Source: Escherichia phage vB_EcoP_C
DNA length: 44,970 bases
Strand: one strand, 5' to 3'
Sequence record: NC_047807.1
Part shown: positions 390 to 11,113 of the stretch, one piece after another
Layout: the number at the start of each line of letters is the position of its first letter
How positions within the stretch are numbered: the first letter of the stretch is position 1
Notes under the pieces: model-generated
Told to the model about the DNA's origin: nothing
The model's database searches: none
What the model saw: the letters and a program-made list of their open reading frames with translations, nothing else
Made by a program: the position numbers and the translations under genes

Positions 390-497
390 AGTTTGTATGT
401 AGTACCTAGCACTTCCTCACGAATCTGCGCAAATCGTAAGGAACATTTCAGGGTTACACCGTCTGAGAAGATGAAGTTATATTGCCTTTCCATCTTA

Positions 498-827
498 TTA
501 TTCCTCTTCTCCGCCTTCATACCAAACTACATCGCTGTCATTTGGTACATCATTATAAAGAGCTTCATAGATGCGAGCTTGTAGAATCTTGGTTACATCC
601 TTCGTATCAGGAATCAAACCAGCATCTTCAAAATCAACATCAATGCCATCAGCAGCCATCACAGTAAAGATTTCGCTGTAATAAACTGGCACCATGCTAT
701 CTACAACCTCATGCAGTGCATCAGAGTAATCATCATCTTCACGAATCTCATCGTACTTGATGCGCTCGTTGAATGCTTCAACAGTTGCAGCCAGAAGGTT
801 GTAGTAAGCGTTAGCGTTGCGTTCCAT
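498..827 (-). CDS. ocr: Ocr-like anti-restriction DNA-mimic protein (T7 gp0.3 homologue), 109 aa
   Basis: Highly acidic; recalled similarity to T7 Ocr (IRxDDD...VPxYYSxIFxVMAxxGIDxxFEDxGLxPDTKDVxxILQARIYE); GAGGA SD. Confidence 0.8.
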   Translation of the reverse strand: MERNANAYYNLLAATVEAFNERIKYDEIREDDDYSDALHEVVDSMVPVYYSEIFTVMAADGIDVDFEDAGLIPDTKDVTKILQARIYEALYNDVPNDSDVVWYEGGEEE

Positions 828-6060: not shown

Positions 6061-6396
6061 TTACGCACTGACAATGTGTTTACCTAGAATGTAAACATCT
6101 ACATCTATGTCTATTTCAACTTGTGCTGTATGGAATACATGTACTTCTAATCTAGTATCTGACACTTTAGTAATCCAAGCTGTACAAAGTGTAGGTGTAC
6201 TTAATGATACAAGTGATGCCCACGAAGAATCTAAATCTCCTGTTGCAGGTACTTCTATCTCAATTTTAGTATCTTCACTTGGGACTACACCTTCAAATGT
6301 AACACGCCTTTTAGATAGTAAATTATCCAATAATGTAGCTAGTACAGTATCTCTATGTAGTAAGCCAGTTGTCTTGGGTTTAGTTAACTTAGCCAT
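6061..6396 (-). CDS. Short tailspike-module protein (111 aa), possible vestigial second tailspike or adaptor
   Basis: ORF-track frame with start moved to ATG at 6396 (AGGAG SD); sits directly downstream of promoter 6475-6497 and upstream of endosialidase. Confidence 0.55.
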   Translation of the reverse strand: MAKLTKPKTTGLLHRDTVLATLLDNLLSKRRVTFEGVVPSEDTKIEIEVPATGDLDSSWASLVSLSTPTLCTAWITKVSDTRLEVHVFHTAQVEIDIDVDVYILGKHIVSA

Positions 6397-6474
6397 ATAC
6401 TCTCCTATTACTTCCCAACCCTCCCTATGAAGATTGGCTAGTAATAGGCCGCTCAAAAGAACGGCACTATCTTA

Positions 6475-6497
6475 TCTCTTCTATAGTGTCAGTAAAT
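6475..6497 (-). promoter_or_regulatory. SP6-type phage RNAP promoter (ATTTACTGACACTATAGAAGAGA)
   Basis: Member of 11-copy promoter family; intergenic between lysis genes and tailspike module. Confidence 0.7.
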
Positions 6498-6526
6498 CGT
6501 AAGACACTGATACATAAAACTATGTA

Positions 6527-6724
6527 TTAATTATACCCGTGTTCTAGCGAGAGAATGTACATACCTAATTTTGTAGCGTCAGGTTTACTGAAGCAGACTT
6601 TATCGTCCACCTCGTAGACTGCCGTAAGCGTCGGCTTCAGAGGCTTCACCTTTGGATTCTCTGGTAACGCCGTCTGACACCCTGAAGTGATCAGCGAACC
6701 AATCAGCAGGATTGTCGCTAGCAT
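6527..6724 (-). CDS. Putative o-spanin (Rz1-like outer-membrane lipoprotein), about 65 aa
   Basis: Internal ATG with GAGG SD; lipoprotein signal MLATILLIGSLITSGC then Pro-rich segment; overlaps the neighbouring membrane-protein frame. Confidence 0.55.
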   Translation of the reverse strand: MLATILLIGSLITSGCQTALPENPKVKPLKPTLTAVYEVDDKVCFSKPDATKLGMYILSLEHGYN

Positions 6725-8147: not shown

Positions 8148-8172
8148 TTCCTTCTATAGTGTCCGGTAATTA
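8148..8172 (-). promoter_or_regulatory. SP6-type phage RNAP promoter variant (AATTACCGGACACTATAGAAGGAAGG)
   Basis: Promoter family member overlapping the terminase stop codon; drives the paralogue pair and lysis genes. Confidence 0.6.
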
Positions 8173-8901
8173 ATAAGTCCTTGAAATCCTTGCAGAAAGT
8201 GTATTTCTGCTTGCCGATTTACTCCTGTAATTCTGACCGTATACTCTTTGCTGCATAGCCACGGAAGTGTTGGTTACTCTTCGCTCAGTGCCATAATCTC
8301 CATAGAGCATTGCCCTACGGAGGTGAGGTGTGTTCATAGCTTGGATATAATCGCGCATCTCCTGCGCTCTGAGGCGATTAATCCGTGTAACCTCGTCATA
8401 GTCTATCTGAGAAGTTAATTGCCGTATAGCGCCATACAGCGCGTCTAAGCGGTCATCGTGCCGGAGGCTGTTCTTCTCAATCGTGATGTTCGACATTTGA
8501 TTGAAAAGGCTGTATGACATGCGTAGTTCAAGCGGATAGTGCTGTACCGACTCAAAATCAGACTTGACCATCTCTGCGTTGAAGATGAGCCTGTGGGCCG
8601 CCATTAGTGGCTCTAGTGTTTCAATGATACGCAACTCTTTCTGTCCGGTGGCGTAATCTTCCTCCAGAGTCACAGGCCACTCTCGTTCAAAGTATGGCTT
8701 TATAACGGCCTCAAACGCGCCATGACCAAAGTTCTTTTCAATGAATACCTCTTTAACACCTGCCTGCTTTGCGGCCTGCACAATGCGATTCAGGGACGAT
8801 TCGCGGTATCCTCCCGGCACACCAAAGCACTGATACACATAAATGAATGTGCCGTGCAGGAAGACGATAGCCACACCCGTTTCATCCCCATTCTTACCTC
8901 C
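8170..8901 (-). CDS. Terminase large subunit, exon 2 (nuclease domain; GGKNGDETGVAIV onward)
   Basis: ORF-track frame 8170-8952 carries the terminase nuclease motif; sequence upstream of 8901 is intron-derived. Confidence 0.8.
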   Translation of the reverse strand, partial: GGKNGDETGVAIVFLHGTFIYVYQCFGVPGGYRESSLNRIVQAAKQAGVKEVFIEKNFGHGAFEAVIKPYFEREWPVTLEEDYATGQKELRIIETLEPLMAAHRLIFNAEMVKSDFESVQHYPLELRMSYSLFNQMSNITIEKNSLRHDDRLDALYGAIRQLTSQIDYDEVTRINRLRAQEMRDYIQAMNTPHLRRAMLYGDYGTERRVTNTSVAMQQRVYGQNYRSKSASRNTLSARISRTY

Positions 8902-9427
8902 CGGTTTGAACGTGACGTGCGAGCCAACCCTTGTGGTGTTTACGTAAACCATGTGCCACCTTACGCATATTCTGAGGTGTTAGGTTGTGCTCTTTACAGA
9001 AGTCAGTAATGCAAGTTACAAGAAACTCTTCACCATCTGGAGAAGTGAATATGTAATCTTTGCCAGTACCTTTGTTGTAAGGTGTCATGCCTTTCTTGAA
9101 CTCAGTGGCAACAGACAAGTGCTGTCCTTTCTTGATTTCAGTGGCAATACTTATGCGTTCACCTTTCTCGATGTTACCTGCTTTGCGATAACCACCTTTA
9201 CCCTTATTCCAACCCATGTTGTCATGTGGGCGTAGCTTCTCTTCTAGTGCATAACACTCTTCTTTGCTACCAGTGAATAAGATAACGTACTCGCGGCCAT
9301 CACAAAGACGGCCTGCACACTTGTGCTCTCTCATACGCTTCTTAATATCGGAGGTTACACCAATATAACCTTGCATTACATCAGTTTCACCAACAACACG
9401 AATATGATAAACTTTATGCTCTGTCAT
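8894..9427 (-). CDS. GIY-YIG homing endonuclease (intron-encoded), 177 aa
   Basis: GIY-YIG-like motif (VYHI...11 aa...YIGVT), conserved R/E/N positions, C-terminal NUMOD-like repeats; own GGGAG SD; lies inside the terminase intervening sequence. Confidence 0.8.
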   Translation of the reverse strand: MTEHKVYHIRVVGETDVMQGYIGVTSDIKKRMREHKCAGRLCDGREYVILFTGSKEECYALEEKLRPHDNMGWNKGKGGYRKAGNIEKGERISIATEIKKGQHLSVATEFKKGMTPYNKGTGKDYIFTSPDGEEFLVTCITDFCKEHNLTPQNMRKVAHGLRKHHKGWLARHVQTGR

Positions 9428-9647
9428 ATTTAACTCCCTTCAATTGTTACGTTAATTCGCTACTTTAACTTCTACTAGTCACCTAGTAGGTCGGACTATA
9501 TCTTAGGCTTGCGCCTCCCTCTGTTTCAGACCGCTTGGCCTTACAGTTAGTCTCTACACGTTCCTGTTATTGCAACAGGCTTCGCTCGGTATTGTCTCAG
9601 TGAGAGTTCCACCGAATTAAGAGGGTTTTACGCTGGCAGAGGTGTTT
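8902..9647 (-). mobile_element. Group I self-splicing intron (about 746 nt) in terminase large-subunit gene
   Basis: Splits terminase within YIDPAG|GGKNGDETG; P1 (exon GCUGGU with intron GCCAGC 9632-9637); P10 (intron CCUCU with exon-2 GGAGG); P7 core elements GACUA (9546-9557) and AAGAUAUAGUCC (9493-9504); P9-like hairpin with GUGA tetraloop. Confidence 0.75.
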
Positions 9648-10814
9648 ACCAGCGGGGTCAATGTACATAATTTTACGGGTGACAGCGCCCCATTCATACG
9701 GTCGGGCCACAGGGCGATACATAAAGTCTGTAGGCTTATTGCCATACTTCGGTGCATCGCCAATGATGTTAATAGAGTCGTTGCTCCATGTAGGCATCAC
9801 AGGGACTTCCTCTGTACCGAATGAAGTGAAGATGAGGTTGTTCAGGCGTAGCGGATAGCGGTCAGCATCCATCATGCGAGTGTTAAGCATAAACTGAAGC
9901 TGGAACTTAGCCGCACCCTGCGAGATTTCCTTCTCAATCAGCACATCATCATCATACATTTCAGGTGCACAAGGGGCACCACTATTGCCATCCAAGCCAT
10001 ACCCTGAGCGAAGTGCTGGGTTGTCCTTCATATCCTGCACAATCATAGGTGCAAGGAAGTCGCCATAGCATTGCTCCTGCTCCACTGAGGGATAACGTGC
10101 AGTCCAGATACGAACAGAGTAACCACGAGCAGGTAGGTTATTGTAGATAGAGTTTACGTTCTGAGGAGTACCAAGGTAGATAATATCACCAAACTGGTTA
10201 ATAGATTCAAACTCCTTGGTCAGTTCCTCAAGCAAGGCACGTCCTGCCGCTGTACGAGCATTCTGCATTGACTCAACGTCATCTGCTAGGATGATATCTG
10301 CACGCGCACCCTGCATACCTGCTTCGATTGAGTAACAAGACACAGAAGGCGACTTGTCACTGCCACGTAGGGTGTAATGAATCTCAAATGCCTTAACTGA
10401 GGCACGGTCCCCTGCGTAGATGTCCGGTAGCATAAACTCAAGAAAGTCTAGGCCACGGAAGATTTTAACTACCCAACCTGCGATTTCCTCTGCTCGCTTG
10501 GCGTTTTGGGATACAACCATGATACGCTTATGCGGTTCATGAATGATACGGAATACTGTATAGATTGCTGATAGTGTTGTCTTAGCGATACCACGAGGCG
10601 CTTCGATGAGGCGATACTTGTGTCCGTAGAATAGGAACTTCAAGATATCAGCCTGCATACGAATCAGATGAGGGTTGCCTGCAATTAAGTTATGAATAAC
10701 TGTGTCTGCAAAGAGAAGCAAACCTTCCGCTGTGTAAGGAAAGGTCTGCTGTAACTCCTGTAGCATCTCCCATCTGGCAAGAGCCTCCGCTTGTGATTCT
10801 CTTGCCTTAGCCAT
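9648..10814 (-). CDS. Terminase large subunit, exon 1 (ATPase domain)
   Basis: T7 gp19-like sequence; ATG at 10814 overlaps terminase-small stop (TGATG) with AAGGAGG SD; reading frame runs into intron after ...YIDPAG. Confidence 0.85.
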
Positions 10815-11113
10815 CAATCCTCCTTAGTGAATTGAATAATCTTGCCACTTGATGCCTCTCGGATAGCCTTGAGGCGCTTAGATAGCTTGGACTCCTCCTG
10901 CTGTGCAGCGGGTGTAGCGGTAATACCATTATCAAGAACCCACTTACACATAGCTCCAATGTCTTTACCAGAGACTAAATGCAGTGCTGCATCTGGGTCT
11001 TCTTCTATAGTGTCCAGTATTGCCTGTGCTTTCTTATTAAAGATTTTGGTAATAGCACCATGTAGAATGCCAACCTCGTCTTCCGTAGCTGCATGTTTAT
11101 TGTGTACGCTCAT
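10814..11113 (-). CDS. Terminase small subunit (T7 gp18-like), about 99 aa
   Basis: Position between holin and terminase large subunit; start moved to ATG at 11113 with GGAGGAGG SD. Confidence 0.65.
   Translation of the reverse strand: MSVHNKHAATEDEVGILHGAITKIFNKKAQAILDTIEEDPDAALHLVSGKDIGAMCKWVLDNGITATPAAQQEESKLSKRLKAIREASSGKIIQFTKED

Follow-up and report, generated by a model that had tools for sequence, protein, structure and literature searches.

The large terminase subunit gene (terL) of this phage, a K1E-like Vectrevirus, is almost certainly interrupted within its nuclease domain by a mobile group I intron, probably of IA2 type, which encodes a GIY-YIG homing endonuclease. The reading of the terL interruption as an intron is correct, but it is not new, because the same element was already annotated in phage K1E in 2006 and listed as a group I intron in 2008; it was discussed again in 2014. 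Throughout, the window denotes the whole stretch of DNA analysed (44,970 nucleotides). Its 2.8-kb terL region is 100% identical to that of phages vB_EcoP_D and R, the latter being the phage known from the classic therapy work of Smith & Huggins (PMC5582158). In the GenBank records one essential gene is split into two 'terminase' CDSs with the intron left unannotated, and therefore the exons should be joined in annotation pipelines as well as in terminase phylogenies. RNA splicing should be a requirement for making virions of this phage. What the comparative data contribute is modest, and the current view of phage group I introns is unchanged.

The interrupted terL gene

The limits of the two exons and of the insert (Table 1), first proposed in a preliminary description of the window, were all found to be correct by sequence. 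When the exons are joined between GCTGGT and GGAGGT, they encode a 632-aa protein which reads YIDPAG up to the junction and GGKNGDETGVAIV beyond it (junction-spanning peptide, YIDPAGGGKNGDETG), again as described. Removal of the insert leaves a 1899-nt terL. It aligns gap-free with the terL of vB_EcoP_K, which is uninterrupted and differs at 45 nt and 4 aa, and whose product is also 632 aa long. The exon boundary is unique, as a shift by one base in either direction gives an altered sequence or a stop codon, and alignment to the intronless allele places the G at 8902 as the last intron base, where it had been assigned. Comparison of the joined exons with an intact terminase, which had been suggested as a check, shows them to be colinear with vB_EcoP_K terL as well as with T7-family TerL structures, to which the protein aligns across the junction (8DGC, E = 1.9e-82; 4BIJ, E = 6.7e-75).

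The gene is indeed split; however, the break does not fall between the ATPase and nuclease domains, as had been supposed. Since the T7-terminase RNase H-like nuclease domain (Pfam PF22530) spans residues 385-494 of the joined TerL, the junction after residue 389, three residues past the Asp of IDPAG, lies inside the nuclease domain. An intein or translational bypass was ruled out because the 746-nt insert contains stop codons in the terL frame. TerL is essential in tailed phages, and the fact that the isolates form plaques thus lends indirect support to splicing in vivo.

Table 1. Features of the terL region of the window; all coordinates count from the first base of the window.
Feature	Position	Strand	Remarks
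Nearest phage-type promoter upstream of terL	11001..11015	-	promoter matches
terL exon 1	10814-9648	-	1167 nt, 389 codons, ATG at 10814 (ORF and sequence); ATPase domain and first strand (IDPAG, Asp386) of nuclease domain
UGA closing exon-1 reading frame	9597..9599	-	16 sense codons into intron, within P5; exon-1 ORF 9597..10817
Insert: group I intron, predicted IA2-type core without P2	9647-8902	-	746 nt, edges set by intronless allele; first base A9647, last base (omega G) G8902
P1, exon GCUGGU 9653-9648 / internal guide GCCAGC 9637-9632	9632..9653	-	sequence
P10 guide ACCUCU	9638..9643	-	sequence; partner is first six exon-2 bases GGAGGU 8901-8896
Ribozyme core overall	9451..9625	-	hand-built fold, covariation
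P3	9625-9620/9522-9517	-	manual helix
P4	9615-9610/9591-9586	-	manual helix
P5	9605-9595	-	manual helix
P6-P6a	9585-9558	-	manual helix
P7	9552-9548/9498-9494	-	manual helix
P7.1/7.2-type hairpin	9541-9528	-	manual helix
P8, GCAA loop	9516-9505	-	manual helix
P9, GUGA loop	9489-9472	-	manual helix
P9.1	9469-9451	-	manual helix
Shine-Dalgarno-like GAAGGGAG	9434..9441	-	6 nt upstream of endonuclease ATG; putative function
Homing endonuclease ORF	8894..9427	-	177 aa; 3' of ribozyme core, crosses 3' splice site
Endonuclease TAA stop	8896-8894	-	within exon 2
terL exon 2	8901-8170	-	732 nt including stop (243 codons and stop); remaining RNase H-like nuclease domain and C-terminus (Pfam PF22530, E = 1e-32)

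Ribozyme fold and splice-site pairings

A covariance-model scan, proposed earlier as a means of recognising a group I intron, recovers the fold: Rfam RF00028 matches the intron over the full model length at 61 bits (E = 3.5e-13; threshold, 50 bits) and the intron copies of phages phD2B, VEN and PA28 at 56-60 bits, and our own covariance model, R1, finds a single copy in the whole window at 285 bits. The first helix of the Rfam alignment, placed in exon 1 (9720-9683), is an alignment artefact, the true P1 being that of Table 1, which was present as first described with its terminal wobble pair (U9648-G9637) at the 5' splice site. The core elements GACUA and AAGAUAUAGUCC and the hairpin with a GUGA tetraloop (CUACUAG-GUGA-CUAGUAG) were likewise located. 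The P10 pairing also exists, but it comprises 6 bp (ACCUCU/GGAGGU), one more than the 5 bp originally counted. All core helices from P3 to P8 are present, with P3 and P7 crossing as a pseudoknot, and P2 is absent.

Covariation argues strongly for this hand-built fold. Paired cells amount to 100% in seven same-site copies, against 28-41% in slid controls and with 14 compensatory pairs; to 97.3% in 10 sequences; and to 95.8% in 82 distinct relatives, where slid controls give 37-45%. Across these 82 relatives compensatory changes occur in 48 of 52 pairs (none of 500 shuffles scored as high) and in each of the six pairs of P1, and P7 is uninformative in this respect because it is invariant. A hairpin between P7 and P3' (AGGCC/GGUCU), where the VEN intron carries 7 extra nt, is supported by covariation as well. 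P1 tracks the exon in Pseudomonas phage PA28, whose copy is inserted a few codons away (AACGGU/GCCGUU), and at two other terL sites (including GACGAU/GUCGUC); the PA28 P10, AUCACU/GGUGAU, shows two compensatory pairs. PA28 was misaligned by MAFFT and was aligned with the covariance model instead. A homologous core occurs in TMP-IVS1/2, classed as IA2 introns in PMC2504315, and the present intron is probably of IA2 type.

On the model of established group I chemistry, the terL precursor would fold such that the exon end GCUGGU and the guide GCCAGC form P1, with the U-G pair at the splice site, and an external guanosine held at P7 would attack after U9648. The guide ACCUCU would then pair with GGAGGU of exon 2 to form P10 while G8902 occupies the G-binding site, and ligation of the exons would give the mRNA for the 632-aa TerL. 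In a mixed infection the endonuclease presumably cleaves an intron-less terL, and repair would copy the intron in.

The 3' splice site lies approximately 550 nt downstream of P9.1, and a by-eye search for a long-range pairing (P9.0 or other) that would place it found none besides P10. In the window the ribosome-binding region could pair with the 3' end through UUGAA/UUCAA, a candidate that is unsupported in VEN and PA28. A literature search found no RNA or biochemical evidence of splicing or cleavage for this intron lineage. It is conceivable, but on balance unlikely, that the intron splices in vivo without being autocatalytic on its own, with folding that depends on a factor supplied by the host or the phage, or on the precursor being actively translated. 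Some introns of Bastillevirinae phages are spliced in vivo and not in vitro (PMC11878797), and here P2 is missing, a long coding sequence separates P9.1 from the 3' splice site and the exon-1 reading frame traverses P1-P5 before its stop. However, the core helices and GNRA loops are all intact and conserved, and the title of Bonocora & Shub 2004, cited in PMC11878797, describes a related intron in a T7-like DNA polymerase gene as self-splicing.

The endonuclease reading frame and its expression

The assignment of the intron ORF to the GIY-YIG endonucleases, already made in the preliminary description, is upheld by the catalytic residues VYHI (Y7), GYIG (Y21), R31, H35, E62 and N74, which are invariant in 24 homologues and whose spacing resembles that of I-TevI. 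The catalytic domain (residues 1-80) is predicted to adopt an I-TevI-like GIY-YIG alpha/beta fold and is followed by a linker predicted with low confidence and an I-HmuI-like DNA-binding domain (residues ~120-175). The Pfam GIY-YIG family PF01541 scores 21.0 bits on this copy, just under its threshold of 22.6, and matches 17 of the 24 family members at E <= 0.01 (best 5.6e-6), while no other catalytic family appeared among the profile matches of the homologues. Foldseek and PDB sequence searches with the endonuclease recovered no GIY-YIG structure.

Phage-type promoters give 12 matches in the window where about one is expected, and with a weight matrix built from these 12 the true sites score 19-41 and the best position in the intron 4.5. 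No promoter is thus found inside the intron, and therefore the terL precursor transcript presumably serves as the endonuclease mRNA. The P9 hairpin, CTACTAGGTGACTAGTAGAAG, was considered as an SP6-type promoter and rejected, its weight-matrix score being strongly negative. The Shine-Dalgarno-like site ahead of the endonuclease is kept as GAAGG(G/A)AG or GAAAGGAG in closely related copies.

All copies at this site share an endonuclease ORF that spans the 3' splice site and is terminated by a stop codon in exon 2. Here it ends ACC GGG AGG TAA, with the splice site after the first base of GGG, and overlaps the terL codons GGA GGT AAG. As the TAA is formed by GGT-AAG of exon 2, a complete, stop-bearing ORF exists on unspliced RNA only, and on the excised intron the ORF runs without a stop. 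We tentatively suggest that this arrangement might form a built-in switch, in which endonuclease output is tied to unspliced terL RNA and splicing competes with endonuclease translation; together with the near-identical introns across Escherichia, Klebsiella and Salmonella phages, it would possibly describe a recently sweeping, unusually self-dose-limiting element.

Distribution, mobility and known relatives

Klebsiella and Salmonella phages have exons of 76-81% identity but carry the intron at 94.5-98.7% identity, which gives indirect support to the earlier reading of a mobile element. The intron is present in 12-14 of 126 related phage records and absent from vB_EcoP_K and vB_EcoP_B, which come from the same collection as phage R, and synonymous divergence peaks at the endonuclease target site (nt 1081-1200 of terL). 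These comparisons show one intron that has spread recently across phages of three host genera. That the endonuclease has ceased to act in homing, and is decaying or kept for some other function, for example as an aid to splicing, so that the intron now passes on only vertically, is rather improbable. The sub-threshold Pfam score of this copy and the low-confidence linker would suit such a loss, but the ORF is intact with its catalytic residues unchanged, and the excess of intron over exon similarity among phages of three host genera, the patchy presence among close relatives and the maximum of synonymous divergence at the target site all argue against it.

The exon sequence GCTGGT followed by GGAGGT occurs in 8 of the 8 intron-bearing alleles checked, whose exons are 65-81% identical, and in none of 71 intron-minus alleles (Fisher p = 4e-11); exon position +3 is A in all eight of the former versus 3 of the latter. 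Homing with co-conversion, instead of selection on P1 and P10, might account for part of the constancy of these bases. That the endonuclease insertion simply split terL into genes in pieces, with a gp40A ATPase and a gp40B nuclease assembling without RNA splicing, accords with the two terminase CDSs in GenBank, with an ATG at 8952 near an AGGTGG that could begin a C-terminal fragment and with the precedent of Aeromonas phage Aeh1 nrdA (cited in PMC10448857), but is highly improbable, as a complete covarying ribozyme with P1 and P10 fitting the exact junction would be purposeless, the break cuts the strand with the IDPAG Asp off from the other parts of the RNase H fold and the guide-pairing exon bases are fixed in intron-bearing alleles only.

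Among known systems, the spliced, mobile intron favoured here is closest to the K1E genes 40A/40.5/40B (NC_007637), in which the element sits at the same terL position (intron 99.9%, whole region 99.1% identical), with few exon substitutions between the two phages. Gene 40.5 is annotated there as a putative homing endonuclease, and a 2008 survey lists 'K1E (large terminase)' among phage group I introns (PMC2504315). Neither the paper on vB_EcoP_D and R (PMC5582158) nor their sequence records mention the intron. Lelliottia phage phD2B carries the same ribozyme at the same terL site with a homologous endonuclease (76% aa identity), and its authors proposed that two ORFs are exons around an intron with a homing endonuclease gene (Nowicki et al. 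2014, PMC4246154). The phD2B intron shares 77% identity, and compensatory changes are numerous in P3, P6a, P9 and the P7.1/7.2-type hairpin.

The T4 td intron carries the I-TevI ORF as a loop extending from P6. That intron resides in a different host gene, whereas the present ORF lies 3' of P9.1 and runs over the 3' splice site, and the present intron lacks P2; I-TevI has a DNA-binding domain of its own, unlike the I-HmuI-like domain here. As cited in PMC11878797 and PMC10448857, another group I intron of the Autographiviridae likewise interrupts an essential gene, although a different one, and its endonuclease can stand free next to the intron (PMC10448857) rather than inside it, as here. Group I introns in large-terminase genes also occur in Bacillus phage SIOphi and Vibrio phage ICP1, where splicing has been shown or documented (PMC11878797, PMC10448857); these belong to unrelated phage families and other insertion sites and have experimental evidence, whereas the present case is computational.

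Homologous ribozyme cores are found in the tape-measure introns TMP-IVS1/2 of Bacillus cereus-group prophages, among whose relatives K1E is named (PMC2504315), and in Twort-like Staphylococcus phages, but with other host genes, guides and peripheral elements, and with endonucleases that are absent or of HNH type. BMBtp13 TMP, phiSA_BS1 terL and the phiKZ-like Churi align over their full length to our own model at 100-121 bits. The same intron family repeatedly hits catalytic motifs of T7-family terminases, namely the Walker-B-like ADD, IDPAG and HDD.

The interrupted terminase gene

In a sequence search, the 2.8-kb region of the window around terL, the large-terminase gene, proved 100% identical to the Escherichia phages vB_EcoP_D and vB_EcoP_R; its identity to phage K1E is 99.1%. 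All three are placed in Vectrevirus, a genus of the SP6-like branch of Autographiviridae. The minus strand codes for all genes. The D and R records carry the labels 'putative large terminase subunit', 'homing endonuclease' and 'terminase large subunit', and that of K1E the labels 40A, 40.5 (putative homing endonuclease) and 40B; in many close relatives, e.g. vB_EcoP_K and vB_EcoP_B, terL is a single gene of 1899 nt.

The exon and insert limits of the preliminary description hold, and the joined exons give the protein of roughly 632 residues that it had claimed (1899 nt, 632 codons). The joined exons match terL of vB_EcoP_K position for position, differing at 45 nucleotides and 4 amino acids. 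The boundary is unique, since with a shift of 1 base either way the junction no longer reads the same or a stop codon arises. The joined protein also aligns through the junction with the solved T7-family terminases 8DGC and 4BIJ (...IDPAGGGKNGDETG... in the query against ...IDPSGRGK--DETG...). The insertion had been placed between the ATPase and nuclease domains; however, the Pfam T7-terminase RNase H-like domain covers residues 385-494, and the break after residue 389, three residues past the Asp of IDPAG, therefore lies inside the nuclease domain. In other respects the preliminary description is accurate in observation and in interpretation, and splicing and cleavage are what we infer.

The literature already contains this intron: Tourasse & Kolsto 2008 (PMC2504315) list the K1E copy in their Table 3, among phage relatives of IA2 introns, and Nowicki et al. 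2014 (PMC4246154) report the same layout in phD2B and mention K1E too; the intron goes unmentioned in the paper on phages D and R (PMC5582158). Splicing has been shown for terminase-gene group I introns of other phages (PMC11878797, PMC10448857), and a self-splicing intron is likewise known from T7-like DNA polymerase genes. In the literature searched, no experiment that tests splicing or homing was found for the K1E-like lineage.

A different mobile element occupies this packaging locus in Escherichia phage mutPK1A2 (591-1021), where a small ORF and a gene for a putative HNH homing endonuclease separate terS from an uninterrupted terL. In the phage genome KY295893.1, a free-standing HNH endonuclease gene (6131-6562) adjoins the gene for endonuclease VII.

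Features of the terL region and SP6-type promoters in the window; all helices are hand assignments
Feature	Coordinates	Strand	Detail
terL exon 1	10814-9648	minus	
Insert	9647-8902	minus	746 nt
terL exon 2	8901-8170	minus	
Endonuclease ORF	9427-8894	minus	177 aa
P1			GCUGGU/GCCAGC, with the pair U9648-G9637
P3			CCCUCU/AGAGGG
P4			UCGGUG/UACCGA
P5			UCUC/GAGA
P6			GCG/CGU
P6a			CCUGUU/AACAGG
P7			GACUA/UAGUC, crosses P3
P7.1/7.2-type hairpin (one)			AGGCC/GGUCU
P8			GCAA loop
P9			7-bp stem, GUGA loop
P9.1			GUUAA/UUAAC
SP6-type promoters (higher coordinate of each 15-nt match)	6491, 8164, 11015, 23785, 28923, 32519, 33665, 34434, 38169, 39017, 41317, 35	minus	

Ribozyme fold and guide pairings

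The covariance-model scan suggested in the preliminary description recovered a group I intron with the Rfam model (9720-9472, minus strand, 61 bits against a threshold of 50). The first helix as placed by Rfam falls in the exon and was rejected, the helices being assigned by hand instead; P2 is absent from this fold, in which the GACUA element and GUGA-loop hairpin noted earlier take their places as P7 and P9.

The fold was tested on three alignments. The first, of 7 copies at the same terL site from Escherichia, Klebsiella, Salmonella, Lelliottia and Vibrio phages, has 100% of cells in standard pairs against 28-41% in slid controls, with compensatory changes in 14 of 57 pairs, and is free of the bias of the other two, which were fitted to our covariance model and thus lean towards it: a model-based set of 10 sequences, to which were added Pseudomonas phage PA28, one intron each from a Staphylococcus terL and a Bacillus tape-measure gene, and two from one phiKZ-like phage (97.3% against 32-44%; 42/52 pairs), and 82 distinct sequences among 94 matches from viral contigs searched with an invariant core 18-mer (95.8% against 37-45%; 48/52 pairs). 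Shuffles reached the observed value in 0/500 trials for each alignment. Run on the window, a covariance model made from the first alignment gives a single match.

The proposed P1, with its terminal U, and P10, between the guide and the start of exon 2, are both supported by PA28, whose record, without annotation, holds a related terL intron with a homologous GIY-YIG ORF (1992-2785), inserted a few codons downstream (IDPAGNG|GDE, against after IDPAG in the window). There the exon end AACGGU pairs with guide GCCGUU and the exon-2 start GGUGAU with AUCACU; these pairs differ from those of the window yet match, and therefore P1 and P10 vary in step with the exons. Other relatives, with their insertions after 'LLIADD' and 'RHDD', show exon GACGAU and guide GUCGUC. 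The 12-mer GCTGGT|GGAGGT is present in 8/8 same-site alleles examined, with exons only 65-81% identical, and in 0/71 uninterrupted alleles from viral contigs (Fisher p = 4e-11), only three of which have A at exon-2 position +3 (Fisher p = 6e-9). Such fixed junction bases in intron-bearing alleles fit selection for P1 and P10, though short co-conversion tracts could also play a part in the pattern.

The endonuclease and its probable expression

The endonuclease matches Pfam GIY-YIG weakly (21.0 bits, threshold 22.6), as it does the Pfam I-HmuI NUMOD-like domain. Its family is small (23 database homologues); 17 of the 24 members match GIY-YIG and 19 the I-HmuI domain, and no other catalytic family in Pfam was matched among them. 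The invariant residues V6-Y7-H8-I9, G20-Y21-G23, R31, H35, E62 and N74 constitute, as judged from sequence, the GIY-YIG catalytic pattern, in agreement with the homing endonuclease recognised earlier in the insert. Modelled with AlphaFold (mean pLDDT 79.5; above 90 in the N-terminal domain), the protein shows a beta-beta-alpha-beta-alpha topology.

The ORF spans the 3' splice site (8894-8902, minus strand), taking its TAA from the exon-2 codons GGT-AAG, as also in three relatives (L002, L009 and L010). Since exon 2 supplies the stop, the excised intron would hold a non-stop ORF. A C-terminal ...TGR in most database homologues suggests that they share this overlap; in PA28 the ORF ends 22 nt short of the 3' splice site. 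The exon-1 reading frame ends at UGA in P5 (9599-9597). On the minus (gene) strand of the window there are 12 SP6-type phage promoters (consensus ATTTACCGGACACTATAGAAGA), where chance would give about 1; one directly follows terL (8164-8150), and another precedes it, lying within terS (11015-11001). Because the scan placed none of these inside the intron, we infer that the endonuclease is most likely translated from the terL precursor via its own GAAGGGAG ribosome-binding site.

Mobility and related insertions

The intron of Klebsiella phage cp4 is 98.7% identical to that of the window, and those of VR702, K1-ULIP33 and Salmonella phage PST_H2 are 94.5-95.8% identical; the exons of these four are 76-81% identical. 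Only 12-14 of 126 related phage records contain the intron. Synonymous differences of the window from close relatives that lack the intron cluster at the insertion site, with a sharp peak at about 9600-9700 and 8850-8900 (nt 1081-1200 of the joined gene): 10 of the 45 differences from vB_EcoP_K lie in 64 nt around the junction (p = 2e-6), and 32 of the 148 from L050, the K1E-like contig IMGVR_UViG_3300000288_000022, in 120 nt (p = 4e-8). This peak could reflect co-conversion during homing or target-site recoding, either of which would leave the same pattern.

The terL of L050, 92% identical to that of the window and without the IDPAG intron, has a related intron after 'LRHDD' (window TerL residue 539; model match 415-648, minus strand), with guide GUCGUC pairing with exon GACGAU and a different internal ORF. 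The same intron family occurs at other catalytic motifs of terminase genes in loci L049, L085, L086 and L057, after the Walker-B-like 'RADLLIADD' of T7-family terL and, in a terminase of another type, after 'GHDD'; the L049 intron is without an ORF, and those of L085 and L086 contain internal ORFs.
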